From contig JAGCJJ010000083.1 in NCBI GenBank assembly GCA_017648065.1, forward strand, positions 1-63,310: DNA of 63,310 nt. The letters run 5' to 3'. Shown piece by piece: positions 13,349-34,331 of the stretch. Below the pieces are notes generated by a model. It ran no database searches. It saw nothing but the letters and a program-made list of their open reading frames with translations, and was not told where the DNA came from. This DNA comes from Kiritimatiellia bacterium. Lineage in GTDB: Bacteria; Verrucomicrobiota; Kiritimatiellia; RFP12; UBA3636. A program made the position numbers and the translations under genes. Within the stretch, counting starts at the first letter, position 1, and every line of letters begins with the position of its first letter.

Positions 13349-13363
13349 TAGGGACGGTGTAGA

Positions 13364-14110: not shown

Positions 14111-14163
14111 TGAATTGTTAATTGCATAAACCTGCTAATCGATAAAATTAAGGACTGATTTTT

Positions 14164-14415
14164 ATGCCAGTATATCACTACGAACCAAAGGAAGAAAACA
14201 CAGGTTGCGAGTTTTGTCGTGATGGATTTGATTATACTCAATCCATTAAGGATGACAAACTGACTCAGTGTCCAGAGTGTGGCTGTGAGATAGTTAAGAC
14301 ACCAGTCGCAGCAGCAATTGGCCGCTCACAATCATGCTTTGATGATAGAGCAAAGGCAGCAGGTTTTTCTAAACTGAAGAAAATTGGTACTGGTGAGTAC
14401 GAAAAACAATACTAA
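14164..14415 (+). CDS. FmdB-family zinc-ribbon protein
   Basis: The MPVYHYEP start and two Cys pairs (CEFC ... CPECG) are typical of the FmdB/CxxC_CxxC_SSSS family. Confidence 0.7.
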   Translation: MPVYHYEPKEENTGCEFCRDGFDYTQSIKDDKLTQCPECGCEIVKTPVAAAIGRSQSCFDDRAKAAGFSKLKKIGTGEYEKQY

Positions 14416-14431
14416 AAAGGGGTAAAAAATT

Positions 14432-15848: not shown

Positions 15849-15877
15849 TAATTTTTTACATTTTTATAAGTAAGTAG

Positions 15878-15935
15878 AACCGAAGATGTGAATAGGATAT
15901 AATCCTAATTTGTATCTTCGGTTTTATTTTATTTC
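15878..15935 (+). terminator. intrinsic terminator after rfbC
   Basis: Stem aaccgaagat / atcttcggtt (15878-15887 / 15914-15923) followed by ttatttt. The loop is long. Confidence 0.5.
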
Positions 15936-16010
15936 GAAGATTTAAGTTTCAAACTTTTTCAATAGCTAAATTTTGGTTTATATGAATGCTTTAATGAAAT
16001 TTACGTTTTG

Positions 16011-16079
16011 GTTGTGAAAATGTATGTAGATTGCAAAACTAAATGCACCAAAAGAGGTGCATTTACTTTTGCAAATTAC
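16011..16079 (+). repeat. left boundary element: 15-nt X box plus 54-nt palindromic element R
   Basis: gttgtgaaaatgtat (16011-16025), then gtagattgcaaaactaaatgcaccaaaagaggtgcatttacttttgcaaattac (16026-16079). Arms 16033-16049 and 16056-16072 form a 17-bp stem with one mismatch. The element recurs at 29546-29656. Confidence 0.85.
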
Positions 16080-16263
16080 AAATTATGCAATTTTCCTTAT
16101 AGTTTTTTCTTGCAAAAGATATCTAGGATAGTTTAATATATGAACGAGTTGTAGTTTTATGCTACTTTAAGTCTTTAGTTATAGTGTACTTTTAGTTTTT
16201 AGATTTCATGTCTATTCAATCTTTTGGTAAAAGAGAAAATATATTTAAATATGGTAGTGAAAA

Positions 16264-17265
16264 ATGCCTAGAGTATCAGTTGTGATGCCTGTTTTTAATA
16301 CGAAAACAGAATATTTTAAAGAATCAATAAATAGTATTCTTGGTCAGTCTTTTAACGATTTTGAATTATTGATTATTGATAATGGCTCTGATTGTTATGT
16401 TGCAGATATAGTTAAAAGTTATAGCGATAAAAAAATTAAATATTTTAAATTTGAAAAAAATCAAGGGCCAGCTATTGCGCGTAATAAAGGGATTGATGAA
16501 GCCGAAGGTGAATATATTGCATTCATTGATTCTGATGATATTTCTTTGTCCCAGAGATTAGAAAAACAGGTAGAATTTTTAGATAATAATTTTGATGTAG
16601 GTTGTTTAGGAACTGCATTTGAAGTTATATGTGAAAATCCTAATAAAATGCGACGATTTAACTCTCTTAGAGAACATTTTGAAATTGAGTGCTATTTGGT
16701 TTTTACTGGTTGTACTTTATGCCAAAGTTCAATTATGATAAGAAAATCTATTTTAGATAAATGTAATATACGTTATAGACCGGAATGGGTTCCGTCAGAA
16801 GATTATGGTCTTTTTATAGATTTAGTAGGCAAAACAAAATTTAAAGTTCTTGATGATATTTTGGTAAAATATCGTTTGCATCGCGATAGTACATCTAATT
16901 TATATAAAAAAGAACAAAGAGAAGAAAGTAAAATAATACAAGCGTTTGCAATTAATAAGTATTGTAATATGTCTACTAAGAATAAGAAACTTTTCTCTCG
17001 ATTTATTTTAGATGGTAATCTTAAAAAAAGGGAATTGGTTGAACTTGCCGGTGTAATAAATGATTTGATTACATATTTGTGTGACCATGGTTGTCCTAAA
17101 AATGATGTTATGTATGCGTTAAAGAGAAAGATAAAAAATGTATACTATCACACTCGTTCTTTTCGTGGTCAATGGAATTTAATGGTGTCTCCTATAAATA
17201 AAATCTTTAATCTTTCGCTATTTTGGCGTTTAATGTGTTTAACAACAAGAGGAATTTTCAAATGA
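16264..17265 (+). CDS. glycosyltransferase family 2
   Basis: VSVVMPVFNTKTEYFKESINSILGQS, IIDNGS and the DSDD motif. Confidence 0.85.
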   Translation: MPRVSVVMPVFNTKTEYFKESINSILGQSFNDFELLIIDNGSDCYVADIVKSYSDKKIKYFKFEKNQGPAIARNKGIDEAEGEYIAFIDSDDISLSQRLEKQVEFLDNNFDVGCLGTAFEVICENPNKMRRFNSLREHFEIECYLVFTGCTLCQSSIMIRKSILDKCNIRYRPEWVPSEDYGLFIDLVGKTKFKVLDDILVKYRLHRDSTSNLYKKEQREESKIIQAFAINKYCNMSTKNKKLFSRFILDGNLKKRELVELAGVINDLITYLCDHGCPKNDVMYALKRKIKNVYYHTRSFRGQWNLMVSPINKIFNLSLFWRLMCLTTRGIFK

Positions 17266-18044
17266 AAACACTTATATTAGCAGGAGGTCTCGGAACAAGA
17301 CTAGGTGAAGAAACTAGCGTAAAACCAAAGCCTATGGTAGAAATAGGAGGATTTCCTATTTTATGGCATATAATGAAAATTTACTCTACTTTTGGTTTTA
17401 ATGATTTTGTGATATTGACAGGATATAAGCAAGAAGTGATTAAAAATTACTTTGTTAATTATTACATGAATAATTCAGATATCACTGTTGATTTATCAAC
17501 AAACGCTGTTGAAGTACATCAAACAAGATGTGTTCCATTTAAGGTTACGATGTTATATACAGGACAAAATACACTTACAGCAGGAAGGATTAAACATGCT
17601 CAAGATTTTATTGGGAATGAGCGGTTTATGTTAACTTATGGTGATGGTATTGGTAATGTTAATATCAATGAGTTAATTAGGTGTCACGAACAATCTGGTA
17701 AATTATGCACATTAACTTCTCATCAGCCTGAAGGAAGATTTGGCGCTTTGGCCATTAAAGAAGATGGAATGATTGAAAACTTCTTAGAGAAACCGAAAGA
17801 AAGTGGAATTTGGATTAATGCAGGTTTCTTTGTATGTGAGCCTGAAATTTTTAACTATATTGAAGGTGATGGAATAAATATGATGTGGGAACATGACCCT
17901 TTAAGAAAATTAGCGCGAGATGGACAGCTAAACGCTTACAAGCATCATGGATTTTGGCGTCCTATGGACATGCTAAAAGATAAAGAAGATCTTAATAAAA
18001 TGTGGTCTAATAATACAGCTCCATGGAAGGTTTGGAATGACTAA
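17262..18044 (+). CDS. rfbF: glucose-1-phosphate cytidylyltransferase
   Basis: MKTLILAGGLGTRLGEETSVKPKPMVEIGGFPILWHIMKIY is near-collinear with Salmonella RfbF. ATG 17262 overlaps the GT2 stop (ATGA) and has an AGAGGA RBS. Confidence 0.9.
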   Translation: MKTLILAGGLGTRLGEETSVKPKPMVEIGGFPILWHIMKIYSTFGFNDFVILTGYKQEVIKNYFVNYYMNNSDITVDLSTNAVEVHQTRCVPFKVTMLYTGQNTLTAGRIKHAQDFIGNERFMLTYGDGIGNVNINELIRCHEQSGKLCTLTSHQPEGRFGALAIKEDGMIENFLEKPKESGIWINAGFFVCEPEIFNYIEGDGINMMWEHDPLRKLARDGQLNAYKHHGFWRPMDMLKDKEDLNKMWSNNTAPWKVWND

Positions 18045-18945
18045 TTTAAAAAAAGTATTAGTAACAGGTGGGACAGGTTTTATAGGTCATAATGTTGTTA
18101 ATGAGTTAATTCAACGAGGTTATGAAGTTCATTCTCTCGTTTTCCCACCATTTATGCCAGAGCAACCTAATTTAATTCAGTATGAAATGAATTTAATGGA
18201 TACGGAGGCATTAAAGAGTTTTTTTATCGACCATCGGTTTGAAAGTCTTATTCATCTTGCTTGGTATGTTGGACCTAAATGTCATGTTCATGATTTGAAT
18301 ATGGATTGGTTGATTAGCACATTAAATTTATTAAAATATTTTAAAGAACAAGGTGGTAAGGTGTTTTTAGGGGCAGGAACATGTTCTGAATATGAATATA
18401 AATACGGATATTTATTGGAAGAAGAGACACCTACAGATACTAAGACACTATATGGAAATAGTAAAAATGCTATCTATAACGTAGCAAAAGTATTTTGTAA
18501 ACAAAATGATATTGCATTTAAGTGGCCAAGAATCTTTAATTTATATGGTCCACATGAAAAGCCTCAACGTTTAATGCCTTTTGTAATCAACTCTTGCATA
18601 AATGGAGAAGATGTTAAAGTTAGTGACTGCGTTAAATTTCAAGATTATCTTCATGTAGAAGATACTGCAAGAGGTATTGTAGATGTTTTTGAAAGTGATT
18701 TACAAGGTGCTGTTAATATTTGTTCTGGACAACCAGTTCAATTAAAAACAATTGTAAATAAAATTGCTGAAATTACAAATTTTCATGGGAAAATTCTCTG
18801 GGGAGCTATTCCTGCAGCATTTGGTGATGATTTGGTAGTTGGCAATAATGAAAAACTTAAATCAATTGGCTGGAGACCAAAATATACATTAGAAGAAGGT
18901 CTTCGTCAAACAATTAACTGGTGGAAGGAACATAAAAATGTATAA
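18037..18945 (+). CDS. NAD-dependent epimerase/dehydratase (SDR), probable CDP-4-keto-6-deoxyhexose reductase/epimerase
   Basis: VTGGTGFIGHNV Rossmann motif and a YGNSK catalytic Y-x3-K. It overlaps both rfbF and rfbG. Confidence 0.7.
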   Translation: MTNLKKVLVTGGTGFIGHNVVNELIQRGYEVHSLVFPPFMPEQPNLIQYEMNLMDTEALKSFFIDHRFESLIHLAWYVGPKCHVHDLNMDWLISTLNLLKYFKEQGGKVFLGAGTCSEYEYKYGYLLEEETPTDTKTLYGNSKNAIYNVAKVFCKQNDIAFKWPRIFNLYGPHEKPQRLMPFVINSCINGEDVKVSDCVKFQDYLHVEDTARGIVDVFESDLQGAVNICSGQPVQLKTIVNKIAEITNFHGKILWGAIPAAFGDDLVVGNNEKLKSIGWRPKYTLEEGLRQTINWWKEHKNV

Positions 18946-20017
18946 TACTGTTTATGAAGGAAAAACAGTCTTAGTAACAGGTCATACAGGATTTAAAGGA
19001 TCTTGGCTCTCAATTTGGTTGACACATATGGGAGCAAATGTTGTAGGTTATTCATTAGATCCTTATTCTAATAAAGGTAATTTTGGCGCATCTCATTTGC
19101 ATGATAAACTTTATGCTGATGTTCGTGGTGATACCCGTGATTTGGTTCATCTAGACGAGGTTGTAAAAAAATATCAACCAGAGATAGTGTTTCATTTGGC
19201 TGCACAAGCTCTTGTTCGTACATCTTATGAACAACCAAGAGAAACTTTTGAAACAAATATTATGGGCAGCCTTAATGTAATGGAAGTTATGCGTAATAAT
19301 GATTGTCTCAAAACAGCTATAATGATTACTTCCGATAAATGTTATGAAAATGTTGAGCAGATATGGGGATATAAAGAGACAGATCGCATGGGAGGCGAAG
19401 ATCCTTATTCAGCCTCCAAAGGTTGTACCGAATTGATGCTTCACGCATATCGTCAGTCTTTTTTCAATCCTGAAAAATATGCTGTTCATGGTAAAGCTGT
19501 TGCCATTGTTAGAGCTGGTAATGTTATTGGCGGTGGAGATTGGTCGGATAATCGTTTGATCCCTGATTGTATCCGTTTCATCGAGGCTGGTAAACCTATT
19601 GAAATTAGAAATCCAATTGCAACTCGTCCTTGGGAACACGTTTTAGAGCCTTTGTCAGGATATCTCAAGGTTGGCCAAAAATTGTTGGAAGATCCTGTAA
19701 AATATGCTACAGCGTTTAACTTTGGACCTCATATTTCAGCTAACAAGACTGTTTTAGAAGTTACCCGTCGTTTGGTTGAATATTATGGTAAAGGCGAAGT
19801 TGTAGATGCATCAGATCCTAATGCTGTACATGAAAATACATTGCTTAATTTGGATGTTACCAAAGCTTATGTAATGTTACAGTGGGAAGCTAAGTGGGGT
19901 TTACAAGAAATGATTGAAAAGACTGTAGATTGGTATAAAGAAGCTCTCACTTCTGATGATATGTGGGATTTTTGTGTAAAACAAATTTTAGATCATGGAG
20001 AACATCTTGCCAAATAA
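18938..20017 (+). CDS. rfbG: CDP-glucose 4,6-dehydratase
   Basis: VLVTGHTGFKGSWLSIWL, YSASK, and a 359-aa length typical of RfbG. Confidence 0.9.
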   Translation: MYNTVYEGKTVLVTGHTGFKGSWLSIWLTHMGANVVGYSLDPYSNKGNFGASHLHDKLYADVRGDTRDLVHLDEVVKKYQPEIVFHLAAQALVRTSYEQPRETFETNIMGSLNVMEVMRNNDCLKTAIMITSDKCYENVEQIWGYKETDRMGGEDPYSASKGCTELMLHAYRQSFFNPEKYAVHGKAVAIVRAGNVIGGGDWSDNRLIPDCIRFIEAGKPIEIRNPIATRPWEHVLEPLSGYLKVGQKLLEDPVKYATAFNFGPHISANKTVLEVTRRLVEYYGKGEVVDASDPNAVHENTLLNLDVTKAYVMLQWEAKWGLQEMIEKTVDWYKEALTSDDMWDFCVKQILDHGEHLAK

Positions 20018-21269
20018 TATAGTTTTGGGTGCCGGAATAGCAGGAATTTCGGCATCCTATCATCTTAAGCAAAAAGGTATAGAAAGCACCATCTATGAAA
20101 AAGATAGTGATTGGGGTGGTTTGTGTGGTTTTTTTGAAATAGAAGGCTTTAGATTTGATCGTTTTGTGCATTTTACGTTTACAAAAGAGGAATACATTGC
20201 TAACATTTTTGAAAAATCATCTCCATTATATGCTCATCCATCAATATCATACAATTACTATAACGGTGCTTGGCTAAAACATCCGGCAATCAATAATCTA
20301 GCTCAATTATCTTCTGAAGAAAAAACTCAAATCATCACTGATTTTGTTAATCGACCTCAAAAAGACGTGTCAGAAATTAAAAACTATGATGAGTGGTTGA
20401 GAGTTCAGAATGGTAATTATTTTGCAGAACATTTTCCTTTTCCATATACTAGAAAATATTGGGGGCAAGAACCAAAGGATATGGAAACAAGATGGATTGG
20501 CAATCGTATTCGTTCTGCGGCACTTGATGAAGTTTTACGAGGAGCTTTTGAAGAGCAAGAACAAAATTTCTATTATACAAGTTACATGAAATATCCGAAA
20601 AAAGGTGGATTTAGGAGTATTCTTAATCATTGCCGTAATGGATTAGATATACACTTTAATAAGAATGTTGTTCGGATAGATTCTCGCAATAAGGCAGTAT
20701 ACTTTGCTGATGGATGTCATGAACAATATGACCGCCTCATCTCATCTTTGCCATTGCCTGAAATTGTCAAGATAATTGATGATTGCCCAGCAGAAGTATT
20801 GGAAGCTGCAGAAAAATTGCATTGGACTAGTGGTTATCAGATATCTCTTGGTTTCAATCGACCTGATGTCGCAAAACATTTGTGGTTTTATATTTATGAT
20901 GAAGATGTAATGCCGGCAAGAGTATATTCGCCAAACTTAAAATCCTCGGATAATGCGCCTGAGGGTTGTTCTTCTTTGCAAGCAGAAGTGTTTTTTGATT
21001 GTAAAGCAGAAATTCCATTATCAAGTGTGGTATTAGAGAATACAATTAGCCGATTAAAGGAAATATGCAATTTTGTCGATAAAGATATAGTGGTTAAAGA
21101 TATCCGTTTTGAAAAATATGCAAATGTTACATTTACTCACGAGATTTATGAAAATCGTCAGATAATTTTAGATTATTTGAAATCTGAAGGAATTGATTCA
21201 ATAGGACGCTTTGGAAAATGGGATTATCTTTGGACGTTTCAAGCGTTTAAAACTGGAATGGAAATATAG
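19995..21269 (+). CDS. FAD/NAD(P)-binding oxidoreductase (amine-oxidase / pyranose-mutase-like fold)
   Basis: N-terminal dinucleotide-binding motif VLGAGIAGISASYHL, then YEKDSDWGG. The C-terminal GRFGKWDY resembles the end of Glf/amine-oxidase-type flavoenzymes. It overlaps rfbG by 23 nt. Confidence 0.6.
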   Translation: MENILPNNIVLGAGIAGISASYHLKQKGIESTIYEKDSDWGGLCGFFEIEGFRFDRFVHFTFTKEEYIANIFEKSSPLYAHPSISYNYYNGAWLKHPAINNLAQLSSEEKTQIITDFVNRPQKDVSEIKNYDEWLRVQNGNYFAEHFPFPYTRKYWGQEPKDMETRWIGNRIRSAALDEVLRGAFEEQEQNFYYTSYMKYPKKGGFRSILNHCRNGLDIHFNKNVVRIDSRNKAVYFADGCHEQYDRLISSLPLPEIVKIIDDCPAEVLEAAEKLHWTSGYQISLGFNRPDVAKHLWFYIYDEDVMPARVYSPNLKSSDNAPEGCSSLQAEVFFDCKAEIPLSSVVLENTISRLKEICNFVDKDIVVKDIRFEKYANVTFTHEIYENRQIILDYLKSEGIDSIGRFGKWDYLWTFQAFKTGMEI

Positions 21270-22433
21270 ATGATAAAAATTAGAGAAATTATTAGCTTCA
21301 AAATATTAAAAATTGCATTTTTAGTATTACAACATTTTTTTAAAAAAACATGTTATATATGTGTTGATAATATGTATGAAAAACATGCAAGTTGTATTGA
21401 TACATATTCTTTATTTGAATATTTACGAGCTAATAAAAAAGAGGCATATTATTTAATATGGAAAGAAAATTTGTCATATAAAACAAAAAAAACAGAGGGA
21501 GTTATTACATTTAATCGTCAGGGGGATCCTGATTCTTCAAGCTATTATTTTTTAAAGAAAACTTTTTGGCAATTGTTAAAATGTAAATATGTTGTTTCTT
21601 CTTTTTATGGTTCATTGCCTACAAAATATAGAAGTTTTTTAAAAAATAACAAATATATTCAACTTGTTGGAGTTGGACATGGTCCAGTTTTTTTAAAAAC
21701 ATTAGTTTTTGATTATCCTTTTTGTCAAGAGCAAGAATGGGATAGATATTTAGTAACTAATGATGAAGAAAAAAATATATTTTTAGCAAATGGTTGGCCA
21801 GAATCAAAGTTAATTTTAAATGGATTACCTAGGTATGATTGTTGTGTAAATACCCCCCATAAACAAAAGAAAATTTTTATATTTTTTACTTGGAGATTGA
21901 CTTTCGAAAAAGAAAGAAATAGTATTTACACATCCAAATATTTAAATAAATTATATAAGTTATTAAATAATACTGAATTAAATATTTATATAAAAAAATA
22001 TGATATAAAAGTTGTTATAGGTCTTCATCATGCATTGATTGATATTGTTAGAATGAAAGTACCAAATTTTCCTTTTGAGGTTGCTGATTCAACAAATTTA
22101 ATTGAAGAAATAAATACATCAGATTTGTTTATTACAGATTATTCATCAATATTTTTTGATTCTGCATATTTAGACCATCCTTGTATTTTCTATAGGCTAG
22201 ACGATAAAGATCGATTTCTAATTGATATAGATATTCAAGATAGAGATAATATGAAAGAAAAAGATAGTCAGTTATATAATGTATTTTATGAAGAGAGTCA
22301 AGTCATAGAAAAAATAAAATATTATATAACAAATGATTTTCAATTAGAAAAAAATAATAAATCTAAAATGAACAAATTTTTTATTCAGAGAAAAAACAAT
22401 ATTCCAACATTTATTGAGACTTTAGAGAAATAA
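21270..22433 (+). CDS. CDP-glycerol glycerophosphotransferase (TagB/TagF) family protein
   Basis: FTWR, GLHHAL and LFITDYSSIFFDSAYLDHPCIFYRLDD match Glyphos_transf hallmarks. The ATG directly follows the upstream stop. Confidence 0.8.
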   Translation: MIKIREIISFKILKIAFLVLQHFFKKTCYICVDNMYEKHASCIDTYSLFEYLRANKKEAYYLIWKENLSYKTKKTEGVITFNRQGDPDSSSYYFLKKTFWQLLKCKYVVSSFYGSLPTKYRSFLKNNKYIQLVGVGHGPVFLKTLVFDYPFCQEQEWDRYLVTNDEEKNIFLANGWPESKLILNGLPRYDCCVNTPHKQKKIFIFFTWRLTFEKERNSIYTSKYLNKLYKLLNNTELNIYIKKYDIKVVIGLHHALIDIVRMKVPNFPFEVADSTNLIEEINTSDLFITDYSSIFFDSAYLDHPCIFYRLDDKDRFLIDIDIQDRDNMKEKDSQLYNVFYEESQVIEKIKYYITNDFQLEKNNKSKMNKFFIQRKNNIPTFIETLEK

Positions 22434-24295
22434 TGAATACAAAAATATTAATCACATATAAAGATAATTACGAAAAAATAGAAAATGAGATATTAACTCC
22501 TATTCAAACTGGGCGTGCCATTTCTAATGAAATTTTTGACGGTATGATAGGAGATGATACAGGAGATAATATCTCTTCTGAAAATAATAAATATAGTGAA
22601 TTAAGTGCTCAATATTGGGCTTGGAAAAATTATGAAGAATTAGGGAATCCTGATTATATTGGGCATATGCAATATCGTAGGCATTTTATTTTTAATAAGA
22701 ATGCAAGTTTTAGTATGCATACACCTAAAGAGCAAATTAATGGGTTTTCGGTTAAATTTGTTGAAAATCTAACAGATGATTATATCAAAAATATAGGTTT
22801 AGATGAGAATACCATTACTTCTGGAATCGAGAATCTAGATATTGTAGTTGTTAAAAAGTCTAATATGAGATATATTGGATGTAAAAATGCTAAAGAAGAT
22901 TTTTTAAAACATGTACCGGGTTCTCAAGAAACAGATTATAATATATTAAAAAATATCTTATTAAAAAATCATCCTAATTATATTAACGTATTAGATAAAT
23001 TAGAAAATGAACCATACAGACATTTTTATCATATGTTTGTAATGAAGCGAGAAATATTTTTTGAGTATTGTTCTTTTATTTTTCCCCTATTAAAAGAAAT
23101 TGATGGATTAATAGATTATTCTTATCGAGGAACTCGAGGTGGTCGTGTTTTAGGATATTTGGGAGAAATGCTCTTATGTTTATTTGTATTTAAGAAACAT
23201 GAAGAGGGTATGCAAATAGGTGAGTATTATTCTACAGTGATATTGAAGAATAAAAAAAATAATACAATAATTAAAAAACAATGTAATGTTTGTGATGAAA
23301 AAAAAGAAGATAGGTGTGTTGTATACAACATTGATAATTTAAATTTTTATCATGCATTAGCTTCTATATTTTCGCTAAATCAATATTTGGTCGATAATAA
23401 ATCCTATGATTTAGTTATTTTGTATAGTAATTTAAATCCAAAACAGTTGAATTATATAAATTCAATGATTATTGATAGGTTTAATAATATTATTATAAAA
23501 AACGATGAAGAGGTTTTTCATGAAAATGAAATTCTTAATAACCATTCTTTTTTGAAATCTCTTTATTTTTTAAAAAATTATAGAAATATTGTTTATATAA
23601 ATTCAAGACTTCGTTTTAATAATATAACTAATTTTTCACAATTTGAAAATGATAAAATTAGGGTTTCTAAACACCCTCAAAATGCAAAAATCATAAATAT
23701 CGAACCGAACACAATGAAGTATATTTCTAATATCTTAGAATTAGACGATCCATACAAATATTTTATAGATGATATAATATTTATTAATACGTGTCTGATA
23801 GACTTTGAAACAATAAATGAAAAAGTAAAAACAGATTTAACTTTTATAACCAAACAAATCGATATACTTAATTATATTTTTAATAAAGAAATAACATATC
23901 TTCCTGAAAATTATGTAATGGAGATTTCTTTGGCAGAACGTAAAAAATATTTTTCAAATGATGAATATGATAATGTTTTCAATAAATGCATTTGTTTCTA
24001 TAAGCCTATAGATGATCATTTGATAGGTGTTTTAAAATATATAAAAAACACTCCTTTTTATGAAGAGATATTGTTTGAATCGATAATAAATATTATTGGG
24101 GAAAAGGAACATGAGACTAAATTGTTATTTGTAATGAATAACATAGTTAAATTTAAGTTAAAAAAAGCATTATATCGCATAAAAAAGAGATTTTATTCCG
24201 GCAGAAAACAAGAAAAATATCAGAAAAAATATGATATAGTCAAAAAACTTATCAAAGAAGCAAAGCATCATAATAAATCTTTATTTAAGTTTTAA
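22433..24295 (+). CDS. DUF4422 domain protein fused to a degenerate GT8-like C-terminal domain
   Basis: The N-terminus (ILITYKD..PIQTGRA..GDNISSENNKYSELSAQYWAWKN..HMQYRRHF) is the DUF4422 signature. The C-terminal 330 aa are collinear with the GT8 half and tail of the 24810-27146 product (TPFYEEI..KKALYRIKK..EAKHH). Confidence 0.75.
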   Translation: MNTKILITYKDNYEKIENEILTPIQTGRAISNEIFDGMIGDDTGDNISSENNKYSELSAQYWAWKNYEELGNPDYIGHMQYRRHFIFNKNASFSMHTPKEQINGFSVKFVENLTDDYIKNIGLDENTITSGIENLDIVVVKKSNMRYIGCKNAKEDFLKHVPGSQETDYNILKNILLKNHPNYINVLDKLENEPYRHFYHMFVMKREIFFEYCSFIFPLLKEIDGLIDYSYRGTRGGRVLGYLGEMLLCLFVFKKHEEGMQIGEYYSTVILKNKKNNTIIKKQCNVCDEKKEDRCVVYNIDNLNFYHALASIFSLNQYLVDNKSYDLVILYSNLNPKQLNYINSMIIDRFNNIIIKNDEEVFHENEILNNHSFLKSLYFLKNYRNIVYINSRLRFNNITNFSQFENDKIRVSKHPQNAKIINIEPNTMKYISNILELDDPYKYFIDDIIFINTCLIDFETINEKVKTDLTFITKQIDILNYIFNKEITYLPENYVMEISLAERKKYFSNDEYDNVFNKCICFYKPIDDHLIGVLKYIKNTPFYEEILFESIINIIGEKEHETKLLFVMNNIVKFKLKKALYRIKKRFYSGRKQEKYQKKYDIVKKLIKEAKHHNKSLFKF

Positions 24296-24296
24296 T

Positions 24297-24623
24297 ATGA
24301 AAAATATTAGAATATTTGTGACCTATCACGATGATCATTATAGGATTAAGTCTAATATCCTTGAACCTATTCAGACAGGTTGTATTAATGCACCAAAATT
24401 GTTTGATGGTATGTTGCGTGATGATATCGGTGATAATATCTCGGATAAAAATGACAAATATTGTGAACTTTCCGCTCAGTATTGGGTTTGGAAGAATTAT
24501 GATAAAGTCGGAGTTCCTGATTATATTGGTTTTATGCATTATCGTAGACATTTTATATCTGATAATTGGCAAGGTTTTCCTGATTGGAGCTGGTTGCCTA
24601 AAGGAAATATGCATTTTTGTTGA
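24297..24623 (+). pseudogene. truncated DUF4422 gene fragment, chimeric at its 3' end
   Basis: 108 codons are ~60% identical to the N-terminus of the 22433 gene. From about 24599 the DNA becomes homologous to the 3' part of the FAD oxidoreductase gene, read in another frame, and stops. Confidence 0.75.
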
Positions 24624-24808
24624 AAACGATATACGTGGTTAAAGATATTCGTTTTGAAAATATGCAAATGTAACATTTATCCACAAGATATTTGAAAACG
24701 ATTAAATAATTTTAGGTTATTTAAAATTGTAAAGAATTGATCCAAAAGGACGCTTCGGGGAATTTGATTATCTCTAGACGTTTCAAGTGTTTAAAACTGG
24801 AATTGAAA
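24599..24808 (+). pseudogene. degraded copy of the 3' end of the FAD oxidoreductase gene
   Basis: Aligns by eye to 21055-21269 (taaaggaaatatgca...gtttaaaactggaat) with substitutions, indels and in-frame stops. Confidence 0.85.
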
Positions 24809-24809
24809 T

Positions 24810-27146
24810 ATGAAAATGAGAAAAAAAATTTATATTAAAGATTTAGGAATATCTATTTCATTAAAAAATAAGCGTAAATATTTTGAATTAATTGAAAAAT
24901 TGCAGAAAGAAGTAACTCAGGACACATATTTGTTAATGGATAATTTGTATGAAGAATCTGCTTCATGTATAGATACATACTCTTTATTTTTATATTTAAA
25001 ACAAAATGGGTATAAAGCAAAATATATTTTATATAAGAAAAATTCTTTATATCAAGAATTAAAAGAAAAAGGTGAATTAGAAGATATTATTGTTGCTGAT
25101 GAATCTTCTTTAACTGGACATGATTTATATGAAAAAATATTTTTTACTTTAATAGTAACAAAGTATATTATATTATCATTCCCTGAATCTTTATATGAAG
25201 ATATTAGAATTTTTGCTTATAAAAATCGTTCTATTCAAGTTTTAATGATTGGACACGGGCCTGTTTTCTTTAAAACATCTTTATTAGATTTTAAAAAAAC
25301 AAATTATTTAGCTCCAGAAAGATTTAATTTATATTTAGTTTCTAGCTTAAAAGAAAAAAACTTATTAGTTCGCGCCGGATGGCCTGCTGATAGAATCTTT
25401 AATATAGGTTTACCTCGCTTTGATTGGTGTAAAAAGAAAAAGCATGCAGAGAAAAATATAGTTATAATGTTTACTTGGAGATTAGATTCGTTTAGAAAAC
25501 TTTCAAATGCAAAAGATTTAAAATATTTTGAAAAGTTTGATTCCCTCCTAAATAATAAAACGCTTCAAGATATTGCAAAAACAAATGGTTATAAAGTAAC
25601 TATAGCATTACACCATTCAATAAAAGATTTATGTAGTATTGATATAAAAGTTCCTAAATGTTTTGAAATCGCCGATACTAATAATTTAATTGAATACATC
25701 AATACAGCGGATTTATTTATTACTGATTATTCAAGTATTGTGCATGATTTTATGTTTTTAAATACTCCTGTAATTTTTTATAGACTTGATTATGGAGATC
25801 CTTTATTGTGCGAATTTGATAAATATGATTTAGAAGAATGTAAAGAAAAAGATTCTCAAATTTTTAATGTTTTTTATGAAGAAAAAGATTTAATAGGAAA
25901 AATTGAATATTACATAAATAATAATTTTACATTGGAACCAGAGTATAAAGAAATCGAAGATTCTTTCTTTACAGAAAAAAAAGATATTTGTAAAAAACTT
26001 GTTGAACAATTAGAATGCTATACACCGACTAATTTTGAAAATATTGTTGTCGAACCAAACTGGAAAGATGTTAAAACTGCAATTTGTGTAAGTTCATCTG
26101 ATGAGTATTTACCATATTTATGTGTGTATTTAAAATCTATAACAAAATATACAGTTGCAAAAAAAGATGTTATAGTTTTCAATCGTTGCATTTCAGAAGC
26201 AAATAAAGAAAAATTGTTAAAATGTTTCTCAGATGATGATAGTTTTTCAATTAGATTTATTGATCCATCGCCTTTATTCAGAGATATAAATTTATATGTT
26301 TCGCATGATTACTTTAAAGAAGAATGTTATTATAGAATTGCTGCACCTAAATTGCTAAACAAATATGACAAAATAGTATTTACAGATTTAGATTTAATTG
26401 TACAAGATGATATTTTAAAGCTTGCAGATATAAATCTAGAAGGTCATCCAATCGCGGCATGCATTGAACCTCTATGGCGAGAGTTATATATGCATAATAA
26501 TAAAATAGAAGGTAGAAGAATTCGCGCTTATTCAAATGATGTTTTGAAATTATCTAATCCATTCAATTATTATAACACTGGTGTTGTTGTATTTGATGTT
26601 AAAGAATATAATAGATTAAATTCATTTGATATAATATGTGATATTGTTAATCAAAATCAGTTGTTATATCAAGAGCAATGTGCTTTAAATATATTATTTA
26701 ATAATAATTTCTATACCCTACCTAATGTTTGGAATTATGAATTAGCTCCTTCGTTAATAAACAATAAATATAATTTTGATTTTTATAATGAATATAAATC
26801 ACAAGAAAAAAATGCTAAAATATTGCATTACCTAGGGAGGTATAAACCTTGGAAAAATCAATTAGAATATAAAGCTGATATTTGGTGGGAATATGCAAGA
26901 AGAACTCCTTTTTATGAAGAAATTTTTGCTCAATTACTAGATGCTAAGATTTCTCAAAATAAAAAGGAAATAAGGTTAAGATGTGTTGCACATCATATGG
27001 CTAAATTTATGTTCAAAAAAGCATTATATCGCATCATGAAAACTTTTTATTTCGGTAAAAAAAATAAAGAATATCAATTAAAATATGATAAAGTAAAAAC
27101 CCTTATTAGAGAAGCAAAGCATTATAAAAAAATATTTAAGTTTTAA
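24810..27146 (+). CDS. two-domain enzyme: TagF-like CDP-alcohol phosphotransferase domain plus GT8 glycosyltransferase domain
   Basis: The N-terminal half is a paralogue of the 21270 gene (FTWR, ALHHSI, LFITDYSSIVHDFMFLNTPVIFYRLD). The C-terminal half carries GT8 marks (FTDLDLIVQDD DxD, YYNTGVVVFDV, HYLGRYKPW). Confidence 0.85.
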   Translation: MKMRKKIYIKDLGISISLKNKRKYFELIEKLQKEVTQDTYLLMDNLYEESASCIDTYSLFLYLKQNGYKAKYILYKKNSLYQELKEKGELEDIIVADESSLTGHDLYEKIFFTLIVTKYIILSFPESLYEDIRIFAYKNRSIQVLMIGHGPVFFKTSLLDFKKTNYLAPERFNLYLVSSLKEKNLLVRAGWPADRIFNIGLPRFDWCKKKKHAEKNIVIMFTWRLDSFRKLSNAKDLKYFEKFDSLLNNKTLQDIAKTNGYKVTIALHHSIKDLCSIDIKVPKCFEIADTNNLIEYINTADLFITDYSSIVHDFMFLNTPVIFYRLDYGDPLLCEFDKYDLEECKEKDSQIFNVFYEEKDLIGKIEYYINNNFTLEPEYKEIEDSFFTEKKDICKKLVEQLECYTPTNFENIVVEPNWKDVKTAICVSSSDEYLPYLCVYLKSITKYTVAKKDVIVFNRCISEANKEKLLKCFSDDDSFSIRFIDPSPLFRDINLYVSHDYFKEECYYRIAAPKLLNKYDKIVFTDLDLIVQDDILKLADINLEGHPIAACIEPLWRELYMHNNKIEGRRIRAYSNDVLKLSNPFNYYNTGVVVFDVKEYNRLNSFDIICDIVNQNQLLYQEQCALNILFNNNFYTLPNVWNYELAPSLINNKYNFDFYNEYKSQEKNAKILHYLGRYKPWKNQLEYKADIWWEYARRTPFYEEIFAQLLDAKISQNKKEIRLRCVAHHMAKFMFKKALYRIMKTFYFGKKNKEYQLKYDKVKTLIREAKHYKKIFKF

Positions 27147-27147
27147 G

Positions 27148-27272
27148 ATGGCAAATATTTAAATATTTGTATTTTCTCATGATGAATATTGTGAGCTTTC
27201 TGTACTATACTAATATATGGAGAATTATGTTAAAACCTAATTACTAATTATGCCAGTTTTATGTATTATCAA
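27148..27272 (+). pseudogene. heavily degraded DUF4422 gene start
   Basis: atggcaaatatttaaatatttgt... aligns to the start of 24297, with an internal deletion of ~100 nt and stop codons. It sits 1 nt after the upstream stop, the same position as 24297. Confidence 0.6.
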
Positions 27273-27412
27273 AAATACTCTTTTGTTTAATAATTTGGTG
27301 ATCTAATAGGTTTATAAGTAAAATTACTTTTTGTGAAAAAGGAGATGTTTAAGAAAAATCAGATGAAGATTTTTATTAGGAACAAAAATTAACATTAACA
27401 GTTTTAGAGTAA

Positions 27413-29179
27413 ATGAAGAATATGAATTTAATAAAAAATATAAAACAATCTAATTTGATTCAAAATTATTCAAAATTTTTCCCTTATGTGAAGCCATATT
27501 TATGGCAAGCGATTCTTGCAATTTTAGTAACATTACCATTAGGAGCTATGGATGCTGTTATCGCTTGGGTTTTGAAGCCCTATACGGATGTTGTAATGAT
27601 AGAGCGAAGTGCAAAAGCAACATCTTTTCTTCCTCTTTTGGTTATTATATTCAGTTTTGCCCAAAGCTTTTTAAATTATGCTGCTACCTATTTAAATACC
27701 TGGGTTGGTCAAAAAATTACAATGGACTTGAAATTAAGTTTATTTAAAAAATTAATGCGTTATGATCCGCGTTTTTTTGACAAGTCAACTTCTGGTGTTA
27801 TAATATATAAATTTAATCATGATGCAGAAATGGCATCTAGTGGATTATTAGCTAATCTTAAAGTGTTTACGACAAGGCTATTCTCATCAATTTCTTTAAT
27901 TGTTGTATTAATTTATAATTCATGGCAGTTGTCAATTATTGCAATAGTAATATTATTTGGTGCTTTATATCCATTAACTAAAGTCAGAAAAAAGATTAAA
28001 GGGATTATGGATAAAACAATTTTCTCTGGAGCCCAAGTAATGACACATTATAATGAGGCGTTTAGTGGGAATAGAGTAATATCATCCTTTAACTTATATG
28101 AATATCAAGAAAAACGTTTTAGTAATACTTTACAATCTGTTTTTAAATTAGGCATGAATATGACTAAGAAAACAGGTATTGTTTCTCCTATGATGCATTT
28201 TATTGTTTCAATAGGAATTGCAGGTGTTATTTGGTTAGGTGGGTGGTTAATTTCACATAATCAATTGACTCCAGGAGGGTTTGTATCTTTTATAACAGCT
28301 TTATTAATGTTATATCATCCTATAAAATCTATTGGTTCTAATTATACAAATGTGCAAATGTCTCTTTTAGCAATGGAACGAGTTTTTTCTTCTTTAGAAT
28401 CTAAACCAAGTATAAAAAATAAAGACACAGCAATTAAATTAGAAGATATTAAATCAGATATCGTTTTTGAAAATGTTTGTTTTGAATATGATGCTAATAG
28501 ACCAATATTAAAAAATGTTTCTTTAAAAATTGCAAAGGGTCAAACCGTTGCGTTTGTTGGAAATTCTGGAGGAGGAAAAACAACTTTAGTAAATTTATTG
28601 CCAAGATTTTATGACGTAAAAAAAGGCGCTGTAAAAATCGATGGGCATGATGTTCGAGATATAGATATTGATTCTTTGAGAAATATGATTTCTATTGTTT
28701 TTCAGGATAATATTTTATTTTCAGGAACAATTAGAGATAATATTTTACTTGGAAAAACCTCTGCTACAAATGAAGAAATATGGAAGGCGGTTAAATCGGC
28801 TTGTTTGGAGGAATTTATTTCATCATTGCCTTTGGGGTTAGATACCGAGATTGGTGAACGAGGTACAAAACTTTCTGGTGGTCAAAAACAACGAGTTGCT
28901 ATTGCTAGAGCTTTTTTGAAAAATGCTCCGATTGTTATCTTGGATGAAGCAACATCTGCATTGGATAATAAATCAGAAGAAATTGTTCAACAAGCAATTT
29001 ATAATCTAATGGAAGATCGAACAGTATTTGTGATTGCTCATAGGTTGTCTACTGTTAAAAATGCTGATAATATTGTTGTAATTGATCATGGACAAATTCG
29101 AGAACAAGGAACACATGAAGAATTGTTGAAAAAAGAAGATTCTGTATATGCAAAATTATATAAAACCCAATTAAAGTAG
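27413..29179 (+). CDS. ABC transporter permease/ATP-binding protein (MsbA-like half transporter)
   Basis: Six-TM N-terminal domain. Walker A GNSGGGKTT, LSGGQKQR signature, Walker B ILDEATSALD. Confidence 0.9.
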   Translation: MKNMNLIKNIKQSNLIQNYSKFFPYVKPYLWQAILAILVTLPLGAMDAVIAWVLKPYTDVVMIERSAKATSFLPLLVIIFSFAQSFLNYAATYLNTWVGQKITMDLKLSLFKKLMRYDPRFFDKSTSGVIIYKFNHDAEMASSGLLANLKVFTTRLFSSISLIVVLIYNSWQLSIIAIVILFGALYPLTKVRKKIKGIMDKTIFSGAQVMTHYNEAFSGNRVISSFNLYEYQEKRFSNTLQSVFKLGMNMTKKTGIVSPMMHFIVSIGIAGVIWLGGWLISHNQLTPGGFVSFITALLMLYHPIKSIGSNYTNVQMSLLAMERVFSSLESKPSIKNKDTAIKLEDIKSDIVFENVCFEYDANRPILKNVSLKIAKGQTVAFVGNSGGGKTTLVNLLPRFYDVKKGAVKIDGHDVRDIDIDSLRNMISIVFQDNILFSGTIRDNILLGKTSATNEEIWKAVKSACLEEFISSLPLGLDTEIGERGTKLSGGQKQRVAIARAFLKNAPIVILDEATSALDNKSEEIVQQAIYNLMEDRTVFVIAHRLSTVKNADNIVVIDHGQIREQGTHEELLKKEDSVYAKLYKTQLK

Positions 29180-29260
29180 GATAATGTTACTTTCGACTAA
29201 AATTTAGGATTTTCACAGGATTTTGAATAAAGAATTTTATGAAAATATTTTATTAGTCAG

Positions 29261-29299
29261 TCTTGCTAGTGTGTTTTAAACACTAGCAAGATTTTTTTA
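29261..29299 (+). terminator. intrinsic terminator after the ABC transporter gene
   Basis: 12-bp stem tcttgctagtgt / acactagcaaga followed by T7. Confidence 0.75.
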
Positions 29300-29545
29300 C
29301 TTTAAGAAGAATGTCTATAATATTCAATAATCTATCAGTGCGGTATAGTAAATTCGTTTCAAATGTACTTTTACAAAATATAACAGGAATTGGCGCGGCA
29401 ACTTCTGGCTTCCTTTTAGCAAAAAATTTCTTCAGGATATAATTTTCTTGTATTGTCAGTTGCTTCTTTTAACTTAAGAAATTTCAGGTTCTATCGTCAA
29501 GTCAGGAGAATTCGTATAACTTAATGTGATTCATTAATTTTAAGT

Positions 29546-29656
29546 GTAGATTGCAAAACTAAATGCACCTTTGTGCGACTAAACGCACCTGTTTTGCGAC
29601 TAAATGCACCAAAAGAGGTGCATTTACTTTTGCAAATTACTGTTGTGAAAATGTAT
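29546..29656 (+). repeat. right boundary element: expanded R (three tandem half-sites) plus X box
   Basis: 29546-29569 and 29611-29640 are identical to the two halves of 16026-16079. The 41 nt between them are two more ~20-nt units ending in gcacc. gttgtgaaaatgtat follows at 29642-29656. Confidence 0.85.
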
Positions 29657-29699
29657 TTGTTTATCATTTTATGATATGATAAAATACTTAGTATTTTAA

Positions 29700-30704
29700 A
29701 TGGGAGACTATTTATATATGTGTAAAGATACTAACAGTAATAATAAAATATCTACAAAAGAATTACTGAAGCGAGGTCTGCTAATCGCTTTGGCAATCGC
29801 CTCTTTATTTGTTTCTTCAGGTTTGGCATTGGCATTTGGTCTTGTATTTGCATTGTTATTCGGCTCTGTATGGAGTAAACCAGTAAAGAAACTATCAAAA
29901 TATTTACTTCAGTTTTGCGTAGTAGGTATTGGCTTTGGTATGAATTTAGTTGAATCACTAAAGTCAGGCAAAGAAGGAATGCTTTTTACGATTGTGTCTG
30001 TTGCAGTAGTAATGGTTGTAGGTATGCTATTTGCCAGAATGTTAAAGGTAGATAGAAAGGCAGGATACCTTGTTTCCTCAGGTACTGCAATTTGCGGTGG
30101 AAGTGCAATCGCAGCTACAGCTCCGGTTGTTAAAGCAAATGACAATCAAATATCTGTTGCGCTTGGTACTGTATTTGTGCTTAATGCAATAGCATTGTTT
30201 ATTTTCCCATATATGGGCTATCATTGGCTTAATATGAATCAACTTGAGTTTGGAGAGTGGGCTGCAATCGCAATTCATGATACAAGCTCTGTAGTAGGTG
30301 CTGCCGCTGCCTTTGATGCAAGTTATTTTGCAAATACATCTACACCTAATGTAGCTTTGGAAACAGCAACTCTGATTAAACTTACTCGCGCTCTTTGGAT
30401 AATTCCTCTTGCTTTAGTAACAATGTTTATCTTCAAAGAAAAGGGTAGTAAAATTTCTATTCCTTGGTTTATCTTGTGGTTTGTCGTCGCTATGATAATC
30501 AATACCTATTGTGGACTTCCAGAGTGTATTTCAAAATTTTTAGTGATGATTAGTAAGCGTGGCCTTGCATTGACAATTTTCTTGATTGGAACTGGACTTA
30601 GCGTAAAGACAATCAAGGAGGTTGGACCTCGTCCACTTGTTCAAGGTGTGCTTTTGTGGTTAGTTATTGGCACAATGAGTGCTGCAGTAATTAAATTGAT
30701 GTAG
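29700..30704 (+). CDS. YeiH/UPF0324 family membrane protein (putative sulfate exporter family)
   Basis: Polytopic, with the SSGTAICGGSAIAATAP motif characteristic of YeiH-like proteins. The start could be ATG 29718. Confidence 0.75.
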   Translation: MGDYLYMCKDTNSNNKISTKELLKRGLLIALAIASLFVSSGLALAFGLVFALLFGSVWSKPVKKLSKYLLQFCVVGIGFGMNLVESLKSGKEGMLFTIVSVAVVMVVGMLFARMLKVDRKAGYLVSSGTAICGGSAIAATAPVVKANDNQISVALGTVFVLNAIALFIFPYMGYHWLNMNQLEFGEWAAIAIHDTSSVVGAAAAFDASYFANTSTPNVALETATLIKLTRALWIIPLALVTMFIFKEKGSKISIPWFILWFVVAMIINTYCGLPECISKFLVMISKRGLALTIFLIGTGLSVKTIKEVGPRPLVQGVLLWLVIGTMSAAVIKLM

Positions 30705-30745
30705 GTGAATTTCGAAACGAAAGTTTTTTAATAAAGGAGTGTTGT

Positions 30746-32092: not shown

Positions 32093-32137
32093 TGCTTATC
32101 TAAGCATCCGGACTCTGCCACAAAGTTAGGTGAAATA

Positions 32138-34310: not shown

Positions 34311-34331
34311 TTTATAACGAATGAGGTAATT

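Follow-up and report, generated by a model that had tools for sequence, protein, structure and literature searches.

A TagF-like/GT8 fusion protein in a variable glycan island of a Kiritimatiellia bacterium, a candidate module of a polymerase set for a phosphodiester-bridged glycan

The stretch of DNA analysed here, referred to as the window, is a contig of 63,310 nucleotides (JAGCJJ010000083.1) from a Kiritimatiellia bacterium (GenBank assembly GCA_017648065.1), and it carries an open reading frame (ORF) of 778 codons whose product, P0001, joins a TagF-like phosphotransferase domain of the GT-B fold to a retaining glycosyltransferase (GT) domain of family 8 (GT8). The fusion gene lies in a variable glycan island of ~14 kb, inserted behind the rmlA-rmlC genes, together with a cassette for a cytidine diphosphate (CDP)-activated sugar, a second TagF-like gene, a gene with a GT111 domain and a gene for an ATP-binding cassette (ABC) exporter, which is included in the island. 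Multi-domain TagF-like polymerases are used for the in vitro production of defined phosphate-containing capsule antigens, while to our knowledge next to nothing has been described of the surface glycans of gut bacteria of the Planctomycetes-Verrucomicrobia-Chlamydiae (PVC) group. The host genome (2.06 Mb, 102 contigs, 88% complete) carries LpxC and an RfaE-domain-II-like heptose adenylyltransferase domain, and the nearest named relatives of its elongation factor P come from PVC-group bacteria (Lentisphaerae 75%, PVC group 62%, Kiritimatiellae 58%), which agrees with the view, expressed in an initial annotation made from the sequence of the window, that the host is a probable diderm.

The 778-amino-acid (aa) protein is a member of both the PF04464 (Glyphos_transf) and the PF01501 (Glyco_transf_8) family, as the initial annotation had proposed. 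Hidden Markov model (HMM) searches with Pfam gave scores far above the cut-offs in both cases, 61.1 bits (cut-off 22.1) over aa 167-329 for the former and 121.1 bits (cut-off 24.3) over aa 425-683 for the latter. All the motifs recognized earlier are present in the translation: FTWR (221-224), HH (268-269), ITDYSS (304-309) and IFYRLD (322-327) within the TagF-like domain, and DLD (526-528) and H673-x2-G-x2-K679-P-W in the GT8 domain, i.e. intact DxD and H-x2-G-x2-KPW motifs; the spacing quoted for the region between ITDYSS and IFYRLD (..F.N.P.) was only approximate, the actual sequence being IVHDFMFLNTPV. These TagF-like and GT8 motif residues are invariant across 13 aligned fused homologues (46-76% identity), and so is the pair H149-G150, in 13/13 sequences of each of two alignments. 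Both candidate catalytic histidines, TWR and TDYSS are invariant among homologues down to 30% identity. In a profile alignment H584 of TagF, the equivalent of H433 of TarL, falls on H268 of the fusion (invariant, 13/13), and the GHG motif of H149 lines up with a QHG motif in a TagF-like protein of another genome of the same order (G814, see below). In the GT8 domain D526-x-D528, Q623, H673 and K679-P-W, all of them invariant, align to LgtC and to WbbM, with Q189 of LgtC on Q623 and the equivalent of LgtC H244 kept; the best sequence match of this domain in the PDB is WbbM (6u4b, E 6e-26), while LgtC is matched with E 4e-15.

An AlphaFold model of the fusion, built on the 13-homologue alignment, has a mean predicted local distance difference test (pLDDT) score of 83.6 and comprises a complete GT-B fold (~aa 1-405), a GT-A fold (~aa 420-700) and a long helical tail. 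In a Foldseek search of the PDB this model matched WbbM (6u4b, 3e-23) and LgtC (1e-15), as well as Cps3D (8qoy, the multienzyme of the Actinobacillus serotype 3 capsule, 8e-12), TagF (3l7i, 1.3e-10 over ~450 columns) and Bcs3 (8a0m, the multienzyme of Haemophilus type b, 3e-9). In the ESM Atlas the N-terminal domain has a structural template-modelling (TM) score of 0.84 to a PF04464 cluster. Pfam detected no tetratricopeptide repeat (TPR) domain in the fusion. The basic, aromatic-rich tail is also visible at the DNA level, as a repeat (D3) in which the tail region is 79% identical to 24138-24277. It may contact the membrane or a partner protein; a complex prediction for aa 415-778 of the fusion with aa 290-620 of its neighbour P0181, run without controls, gave no support for binding, with a score of 0.25 against a mark of 0.32.

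The genes between 16264 and 24295 all overlap or abut and are read from the same strand as the fusion gene (Table 1). The initial annotation had named RfbF and RfbG as the CDP-sugar pathway of the window; both genes stand, with family-model scores of 364 vs 300 and 474 vs 278 bits, respectively, but the short-chain dehydrogenase/reductase (SDR) gene at 18037 and the gene of a flavin adenine dinucleotide (FAD)-dependent mutase at 19995, which complete a four-gene set, had been overlooked. The true start of RfbF is probably at 17262, since every alignment begins at residue 14. The relatives of the SDR protein in the PDB are nucleoside diphosphate (NDP)-sugar epimerases, dehydratases and reductases. 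The mutase belongs to the eukaryote-like branch of UDP-galactopyranose mutases (UGM); phmmer matched it to the PDB entries 4dsg (E 7.8e-27, full length) and 3ute (2.8e-25), and its gene overlaps rfbG by 23 nucleotides (nt). A search of the rest of the host genome for a Glf-type mutase (PF03275) gave no match.

The second TagF-like gene and the MsbA-like exporter gene, both reported earlier, are real. The 387-aa TagF-like protein is a paralogue of the fusion's N-terminal domain (43% identical to aa 33-403), keeps GHG, FTWR, HH and TDYSS, and is a possible primer or second phosphotransferase. The gene that follows it had been missed: its product, P0181, is a WbbM-type GT111 furanosyltransferase homologue, matching WbbM (6u4b) with E 2.3e-35 through its DUF4422 domain. 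In the GT8-like region of P0181 (aa ~290-560) the DxD and H..G..KPW motifs are lost, but the C-terminal helical tail is kept, and over its last ~190 aa, tail included, P0181 shares 38% identity with aa 573-778 of the fusion. This region resembles a pseudo-glycosyltransferase, perhaps retained as a scaffold. The ABC protein is a candidate exporter or flippase of the polymer. We rejected the view of it as primarily a housekeeping MsbA, since it scores below the MsbA cut-off, is not conserved in four genomes of the same genus (no match at E<=1e-100) and is encoded inside the variable island. RmlC (15285) was likewise rejected as a 3,5-epimerase of the CDP pathway; it lies with RmlA in the conserved flank and scores as a true RmlC. 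The island holds no other ORFs of at least 100 aa, and neither the ORF list nor Pfam revealed Wzx, Wzy, Wzz or ABC-2 genes in it.

Table 1. Features of the glycan island (positions in the window)
Feature	Position	Strand	Remarks
42-nt perfect direct repeat, left copy	16038..16079		contains hairpin; repeat family D6, 100% identical to 29599-29640
GT2 glycosyltransferase, 333 aa	16264..17265	+	PF00535 117 bits
RfbF, glucose-1-phosphate cytidylyltransferase	17223..18044	+	TIGR02623 363.7 bits, cut-off 300.25
SDR/epimerase-family protein, 302 aa	18037..18945	+	PF01370 119 bits; candidate C4-reductase of CDP-4-keto-6-deoxyglucose
RfbG, CDP-glucose 4,6-dehydratase	18938..20017	+	TIGR02622 474.1 bits, cut-off 278.45
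FAD-dependent pyranose/furanose mutase homologue, 424 aa	19995..21269	+	PF13450 + PF01593; UDP-galactopyranose-mutase homologue
Stand-alone TagF-like phosphotransferase, 387 aa	21270..22433	+	PF04464 59 bits, model positions 26-349
P0181, 620 aa: GT111 (DUF4422) furanosyltransferase domain, degenerate GT8-like region, basic helical tail	22433..24295	+	PF14393 177.9 bits
Second GT111 gene, truncated 5' fragment, 108 codons	24297..24623	+	56% identical to P0181 aa 2-94
Second mutase gene, decayed 3' end (last 71 codons, five stops)	24598..24810	+	tblastn 63% to mutase aa 354-424, E 2.6e-22
TagF-like/GT8 fusion gene (protein P0001)	24810-27146	+	open ORF, 778 aa
TagF-like GT-B phosphotransferase domain of fusion	24810..26039 (aa 1-410)	+	candidate catalytic H149 (GHG), H268 (HH)
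GT8 retaining glycosyltransferase domain of fusion	26070..26861 (aa 421-684)	+	D526-x-D528, Q623, H673, K679-P-W intact
Basic, aromatic-rich helical tail of fusion	26907..27146 (aa ~700-778)	+	common to P0181; model helices 702-775
MsbA/HepA/ChvA-like ABC exporter, fused transmembrane and nucleotide-binding domains	27413..29179	+	ABC_membrane + ABC_tran; MsbA model 546 bits, cut-off 602
42-nt direct repeat, right copy	29599..29640		brackets island

The limits of the island were determined by comparing positions 12500-32400 with four genomes of the same genus. DNA matches, of 74-95% identity, are confined to 12500-~15825 and ~29790-32400, and between ~15.83 and ~29.79 kb there is no DNA similarity to any of the four congeners. 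The GC content is 23-37% inside the island and 40-46% in the flanks. The missing DNA match, the drop in GC and the bracketing repeat together define the ~14-kb variable glycan island, which we propose to be horizontally exchangeable. The fusion protein is absent from all four congeners (0/4) and has no full-length match in 60 relatives. Related repeats of ~50-70 nt occur on dozens of contigs in the four congeneric genomes, often at contig ends, and the 42-nt repeat may be an element resembling repetitive extragenic palindromes or miniature inverted-repeat transposable elements that serves cassette exchange.

Three groups of known systems bear comparison with the island. The first is that of the TagF-like capsule polymerases of Gram-negative bacteria (Cps1B, Cps3D, Cps7D, Cps12B, Ccs2 and CslB; Litschko et al. 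2018, PMC5974469), whose fused forms make glycosyl-glycerol-phosphate or oligosaccharide-phosphate capsules (PMC5974469). The likeness to such enzymes pointed out in the initial annotation is borne out by the joining of a TagF-like GT-B domain and a GT domain in one polypeptide of a diderm, by the presence of both candidate histidines, H149 being matched by its motif only, and by the fold matches to Cps3D and Bcs3, although the sequence likeness to Cps3D is marginal (profile E 9e-8). Capsule systems also use a stand-alone primer of the TagF family, CpsA/TagB (PMC11666461), comparable to the 387-aa paralogue found here. The published architectures, as far as the passages cited here describe them, are of two types, K4CP-like GT-A/TagF and TagF/TarM-like GT-B, usually with TPR (PMC5974469), whereas the fusion has a GT8 partner, a basic helical tail and no TPR; in addition, the capsule polymerases have WHG and APTWR where the fusion has GHG and MFTWR. 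Capsule loci carry KpsMT-type ABC-2 genes, whereas the island carries the MsbA-like exporter only, the rest of the genome not having been searched for kps genes, nor KpsC/S specifically.

The second system is WbbM of Klebsiella pneumoniae O2a, the D-galactan I polymerase, in which a GT111 UDP-galactofuranosyltransferase is followed by a C-terminal GT8 galactopyranosyltransferase (PMC12269835). The island holds the same GT111 + GT8 pair, here adjoining a pyranose/furanose mutase gene; however, while both activities of WbbM reside in one chain, in the island the active GT8 domain is on the TagF-like protein and that of P0181 is degenerate. Besides, the island's mutase, whose translation is coupled to that of the CDP-glucose dehydratase, falls in the eukaryote-like UGM branch, and no Glf was found; the furanose is therefore probably a CDP-6-deoxyhexofuranose rather than UDP-galactofuranose. 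The third system is GgaB of Bacillota, which joins GT2 and TagF-like domains: in the ESM Atlas the fusion's N-terminal domain lies near clusters automatically named GgaB (feature score 0.97, TM 0.77), and the sequence matches at 33-40% identity are GT2 + PF04464 fusions. The partner of the TagF-like domain in GgaB is GT2, its host is a monoderm and export is of the TagGH type, in contrast to the GT8 partner and diderm host found here. The minor teichoic acid of Bacillus subtilis 168 is poly(glucosyl-N-acetylgalactosamine 1-phosphate), a sugar-1-phosphate polymer.

The four-gene cassette itself has a counterpart in Campylobacter jejuni HS:41, where CDP-alpha-D-fucofuranose is produced by the joint action of a glucose-1-phosphate cytidylyltransferase, CDP-glucose 4,6-dehydratase, C4-reductase and FADH2-dependent mutase, and where the addition of a 3,5-epimerase leads to CDP-6-deoxy-L-altrofuranose instead (Simons, Narindoshvili and Raushel 2025, PMC12369002). 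Judged by enzyme family, HS:41 (HS41.17-21) and the island each encode these four activities in one operon, a likeness of enzyme families rather than of aligned sequences. By this analogy, the SDR protein is a candidate C4-reductase like HS41.18 (PMC12369002), and CDP-D-fucofuranose is the most likely product of the cassette, the fucofuranose branch being expected because the island is without a 3,5-epimerase. There are also differences. Tagged HS41.17 has a mass of 46.7 kDa (PMC12369002), which would point to a protein of fewer than the 424 aa of the island's mutase, and to judge from this mass the two may be only distant relatives. In HS:41 the furanoses are glycosidically linked, and the passages of the same report used here describe no TagF-like partner (PMC12369002).

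The mutase of the island belongs to a large family: of 6515 candidates 3094 proteins matched at E<=1e-10, many with 68-85% identity, and the few source names attached to its relatives are 'FAD-dependent oxidoreductase' and 'protoporphyrinogen oxidase'. This family, highly conserved in metagenomes, is rare among species-representative genomes: at E<=1e-60 it was found in 9/401 of those in the phylum of the host, the host included, of which only one (G489) has a close relative and seven are 30-33% identical, and at E<=1e-100 in 1/399 genomes in the class of G061, a metagenome-assembled genome that carries the fusion on a short contig (L011). We suppose that this large unnamed UGM-like family probably comprises CDP-sugar mutases.

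A scan of genome contigs for the fusion yielded two loci, one of them on a 2.7-kb contig, and among 31 metagenome loci only two, L013 and L014, were close; L011 has fusion alignment figures identical to those of L014. In L013 (fusion 67% identical) the order of genes is GT2, RfbF, SDR, RfbG, mutase, TagF-like/GT8 and DUF4422, followed by GT-D and RgpF genes, and in L014 (56%) it is RfbF, SDR, RfbG, mutase, TagF-like/GT8. A further locus, L075, in a genome of the same phylum (G489, mutase 67% identical), has GT2, RfbF, SDR, RfbG and mutase genes in the same order. Throughout L013, L014 and L075 RfbF is 58-74%, the SDR protein (in the same position) 61-76% and RfbG 80-87% identical to that of the window, and the 23-nt rfbG/mutase overlap is repeated. 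GT2 stands directly upstream of the cassette in 3/3 further loci with visible upstream DNA, L013 (GT2 55% identical), L075 (38%) and L080, the last of which (G374, mutase 49%) comprises GT2, a nucleotidyltransferase, a DegT-family enzyme, SDR and mutase. As a constant partner of the cassette GT2 is the first candidate user of the CDP-furanose, and GT111 the second, because D-fucofuranose is 6-deoxy-galactofuranose. In L075 (G489:C67, 722-13018) the block is followed by genes for an FkbM methyltransferase, a product of 121 aa that has no match in Pfam, NeuB, a CMP-sugar synthetase, a haloacid-dehalogenase-family phosphatase and two GT8 proteins, which indicates that a CDP-furanose cassette has been reused there in a locus for a glycan containing nonulosonic acid.

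The TagF-like proteins of this subfamily are found directly behind a mutase gene in all three independent loci, including the scar in the window described below, and the same holds for the 387-aa protein, whose gene starts at 21270, immediately after the end of the mutase gene at 21269. The domains are arranged differently in different loci: TagF-GT8 followed by GT111 in L013, TagF followed by GT111 with the degenerate GT8 in the window, and all three in one protein of 1108 aa, P0021. This shuffling of modules argues that the TagF, GT8 and GT111 activities act on one polymer. The subfamily is rare among genomes. The TagF-like N-terminal domain was found in 1/399 scored genomes in the class of G061 (G061 itself, with 2 genomes unscored) and in 2/401 genomes in the phylum of the host, the host included, the other match being only 28% identical. 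The G061 assembly, of only ~1 Mb, has no mutase match at E<=1e-10 and no TagD, and is uninformative.

Our tentative explanation, to which we give a little less than even confidence, is that the fusion is a module of a polymerase set for a phosphodiester-bridged glycan and takes a sugar-nucleotide rather than CDP-glycerol or CDP-ribitol as donor. Such a set would work on the cytoplasmic side, extending a lipid-linked primer at the inner face of the membrane, and its product, a 'poly(glycosyl-X-phosphate)', would in that sense resemble a teichoic acid, in a diderm of the PVC group. The GT8 domain would add an alpha-linked hexopyranose from a UDP-sugar, and the TagF-like GT-B domain would attack the beta-phosphate of the nucleotide-activated donor, thus forming a phosphodiester, releasing the nucleoside monophosphate (NMP) and joining the next unit. 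With the roles borrowed from TagF and TarL, H149 would be the base that activates the acceptor hydroxyl and H268 would contact the alpha-phosphate of the leaving NMP. The 387-aa protein would prime the chain or make a second phosphodiester, like TagB/CpsA, GT111 and/or GT2 would insert the 6-deoxyhexofuranose made by RfbF, RfbG, SDR and the mutase, or branch the chain with it, and the MsbA-like ABC protein would export the completed lipid-linked chain. The fusion and P0181 may be held at the membrane or together by their basic, aromatic-rich tails.

As to the donor, the sequence contexts of the candidate active-site residues speak for a type of TagF-like domain that transfers a sugar-1-phosphate. 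In the CDP-polyol enzymes the first histidine is preceded by W (WHG), whereas here it is preceded by G (GHG) and in distant members by Q, D or E; WHG has been described as marking TagF and glycerol-3-phosphate (Gro3P) polymerases and QHG as marking GT-B hexose-phosphate transferases (PMC11666461), and W299 of TarL stabilises the catalytic H300 (PMC10901376). The proline of APTWR in the CDP-polyol enzymes is replaced by F221 (MFTWR), invariant in this subfamily; the corresponding P395 of TarL breaks the strand pairing and so makes room for the N4 amine of cytidine (PMC10901376), and its replacement would restore a backbone N-H that could pair with O4 of uracil. Finally, two residues before the second histidine there is R582 in TagF, R607 in Cps3D and K in TarL, as against A, S or G here (A266 in the fusion). 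The fusion thus lacks all three residue features of the CDP-polyol subgroup, i.e. WHG, the proline of APT(W/F)R and the basic residue before the second histidine. The TagF-like domains of capsule polymerases transfer glycerol-phosphate or hexose-phosphate (Litschko et al., PMC5974469), and in that work UDP-GlcNAc, UDP-Gal and CDP-glycerol were tried as donors, the products being UMP, CMP and UDP (PMC5974469). A sugar donor is therefore less unusual than the initial annotation had claimed, and the lack of tagD is not paradoxical, because TagF-like domains are known to take hexose-1-phosphate from nucleotide sugars. A UDP-sugar seems to us somewhat more probable than a CDP-sugar, and sugar-1-phosphate from a UDP-sugar is the donor that we would tentatively put first, ahead of the two CDP-linked alternatives considered below; a share of likelihood hardly smaller than that of a CDP-sugar is left for other donors and for the absence of any, as in a scaffold.

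Several observations weigh against this explanation. The assignment of the donor is drawn from motif differences relative to two legends or passages and from the absence of genes in an incomplete genome, and a source of CDP-polyol is possible in the 12% of the genome that is unassembled or in an orphan nucleotidyltransferase on contig C91. The correspondence of H149 to H444 of TagF and H300 of TarL is based on the xHG motif only, the HMM alignment to Cps3D being unreliable at this place. The fusion has readable flanks in only three independent loci (the window, L013, and L014, which equals L011). Deletion scars are present, so that the system may be partly in decay. The ABC protein is the best match to the MsbA model in the genome, so a role in lipid A transport or another role is possible for it. 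Polymerases of this kind are usually paired with Wzm/Wzt, TagGH or KpsMT exporters, and the exporter of the island, of the MsbA type, is unlike them.

The alternative that survives best, though we consider it unlikely, is that the fusion is an ordinary poly(glycosyl-glycerol/ribitol-phosphate) polymerase supplied with CDP-glycerol or CDP-ribitol from a source that lies in the unassembled part of the genome or is non-orthologous. All biochemically solved relatives by sequence or fold (TagF, TarL, Cps3D and Bcs3) use CDP-polyols, and the completeness of 88% over 102 contigs leaves room for missing genes. On the other hand, the earlier statement that the window lacks TagD/TarI holds for its annotated part, and in the host genome as a whole no match to tagD or tarI reaches the model cut-off, tarJ not having been searched. 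With the TagD model (TIGR01518) the RfaE-II-like gene scores best, at 55 bits (cut-off 165); CoaD and NadD account for the remaining cytidylyltransferase-like genes of the host. The IspD family is close to ribitol-5-phosphate cytidylyltransferases, and the single IspD of the host, on contig C57, has 127 bits with NF001183 (cut-off 166), but it scores as a true IspD of the methylerythritol phosphate pathway (218 bits vs 181) and is encoded between a SecDF gene and a gene of the metallophosphoesterase family. The remaining genes of the NTP_transferase type are RmlA, RfbF, ManC, GalU and the divergent orphan on C91 (G000:C91:21557-22408; L081 2058-2909, minus strand), which speaks for the CDP-polyol alternative. 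This 283-aa nucleotidyltransferase (PF00483 33 bits, no NCBIfam name) is encoded beside a protein with a Hedgehog-N/peptidase-like domain and proC, and is the one unassigned candidate for the synthesis of another activated donor. The DNA flanking L013 (5 kb upstream and 3 kb downstream) and L014 encodes neither TagD nor TarI, although loci of this kind are normally accompanied by their donor genes. Nor was TagD found above the cut-off in G814 (same order, 93% complete), which encodes a GT2-GT2-TagF-like protein of 1355 aa with the QHG motif (L086, G814:C46, 7148-11215), ~5 kb from Wzm/Wzt-type ABC-2 genes on the same contig. The three replaced donor-site residues discussed above likewise count against a CDP-polyol.

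Still less likely in our view, and doubtful, is that the TagF-like domains take the CDP-hexose made by the cassette, be it CDP-D-fucofuranose, CDP-D-fucose or CDP-glucose, release CMP and produce a 6-deoxyhexosyl-phosphate polymer. With CDP-D-fucofuranose as donor they would be CDP-sugar-dependent glycosyl-1-phosphate transferases which, together with GT8 and GT111, would yield a polymer bridged by 6-deoxyhexofuranosyl-phosphate. CDP-linked donors are central to the TagF family, as seen in the structures of TagF/TarL with CDP-glycerol and CDP-ribitol (PMC10901376). No CDP-activating pathway other than the cassette was found in the genome, and wherever the DNA upstream of a close member of the subfamily is visible, the mutase gene immediately precedes that member. 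Furthermore, the equilibrium of 92:8 between pyranose and furanose (PMC12369002) leads one to expect a dedicated transferase nearby that consumes the furanose. However, the block of GT2 and the cassette occurs without a TagF gene on the 13-kb contig of G489, and GT2, NDP-sugar and mutase genes occur without one in G374; GT2 and GT111, the latter a family of furanosyltransferases (PMC12269835), are already natural candidate users of the product; the TarL proline that accommodates the cytosine N4 is F in the subfamily; the CDP-furanoses of Campylobacter enter glycosidic rather than phosphodiester linkages, as far as the source consulted goes (PMC12369002); and a literature search found no paper that pairs TagF-like enzymes with CDP-glucose.

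That the TagF-like domain serves as a non-catalytic scaffold, or that a decaying island makes a WbbM-like neutral (6-deoxy)galactan through GT111 and GT8, would accord with the two deletion scars, the dead GT8 copy, the Pfam match over only model positions 129-297 of 367 and the phosphate-free galactan made by WbbM-type GT111 + GT8 pairs (PMC12269835), but is very improbable given two intact TagF-like ORFs, a complete predicted GT-B fold and candidate catalytic histidines, TWR and TDYSS conserved without exception in distant homologues.

Returning to the sugar-nucleotide-dependent polymerase set, the TagF-like/GT8 protein represents an unusual variant of a known enzyme type, i.e. a third architecture. 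In the passages cited here TagF-like polymerases of two architectures only are described, with CDP-glycerol, CDP-ribitol and UDP-sugars as donors. A literature search for TagF, GT8 and polymerase together returned no relevant paper, its sole match being an unrelated plant paper. The locus also adds a set of three modules (TagF-like, GT8 and GT111) shuffled by evolution between separate and fused forms, a TagF subfamily in a fixed position behind a CDP-6-deoxyhexofuranose cassette, and a host from among the gut bacteria of the PVC group. It offers a concrete case in which to ask if CDP-sugars can serve as donors for TagF-like enzymes; were it so, both the donor class and the polymer class would be ones not described for the TagF-like family, and the mutase that makes the CDP-sugar would be of the eukaryote-like UGM type, not of the Glf type.

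The intergenic DNA on both sides of the fusion gene retains traces of its history. The 514-bp gap between P0181 and the fusion gene (24296-24809) is a deletion scar, in which the truncated 5' end of a further GT111 gene, with a PF14393 score of 99.6 bits confined to model positions 1-83 of 220, is fused to the 3' remnant of a second mutase gene. The latter is also seen as the DNA repeats D2 and D9, and it ends exactly at the ATG of the fusion gene. The segment 27120-27190, around and after the stop codon of the fusion, is 75% identical to 24269-24339, which covers the end of the P0181 gene and the start of the GT111 fragment, and appears to be what is left of a downstream GT111 gene, now deleted, of the kind retained in L013. 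The scar and the remnant after the stop codon thus indicate that the fusion gene once lay between its own copy of the mutase gene and a GT111 gene, and the island looks like two related cassettes that were merged and then trimmed.

Two further observations were made outside the island. At 3995-5785 a single ORF of 596 aa joins MetX (homoserine O-acetyltransferase, aa 23-383) and MetW (aa 397-565), and at 33096-35534 two genes of the PF00144 beta-lactamase family, of ~400 aa each, lie in tandem downstream of phosphofructokinase (PFK) and PfkB kinase genes.

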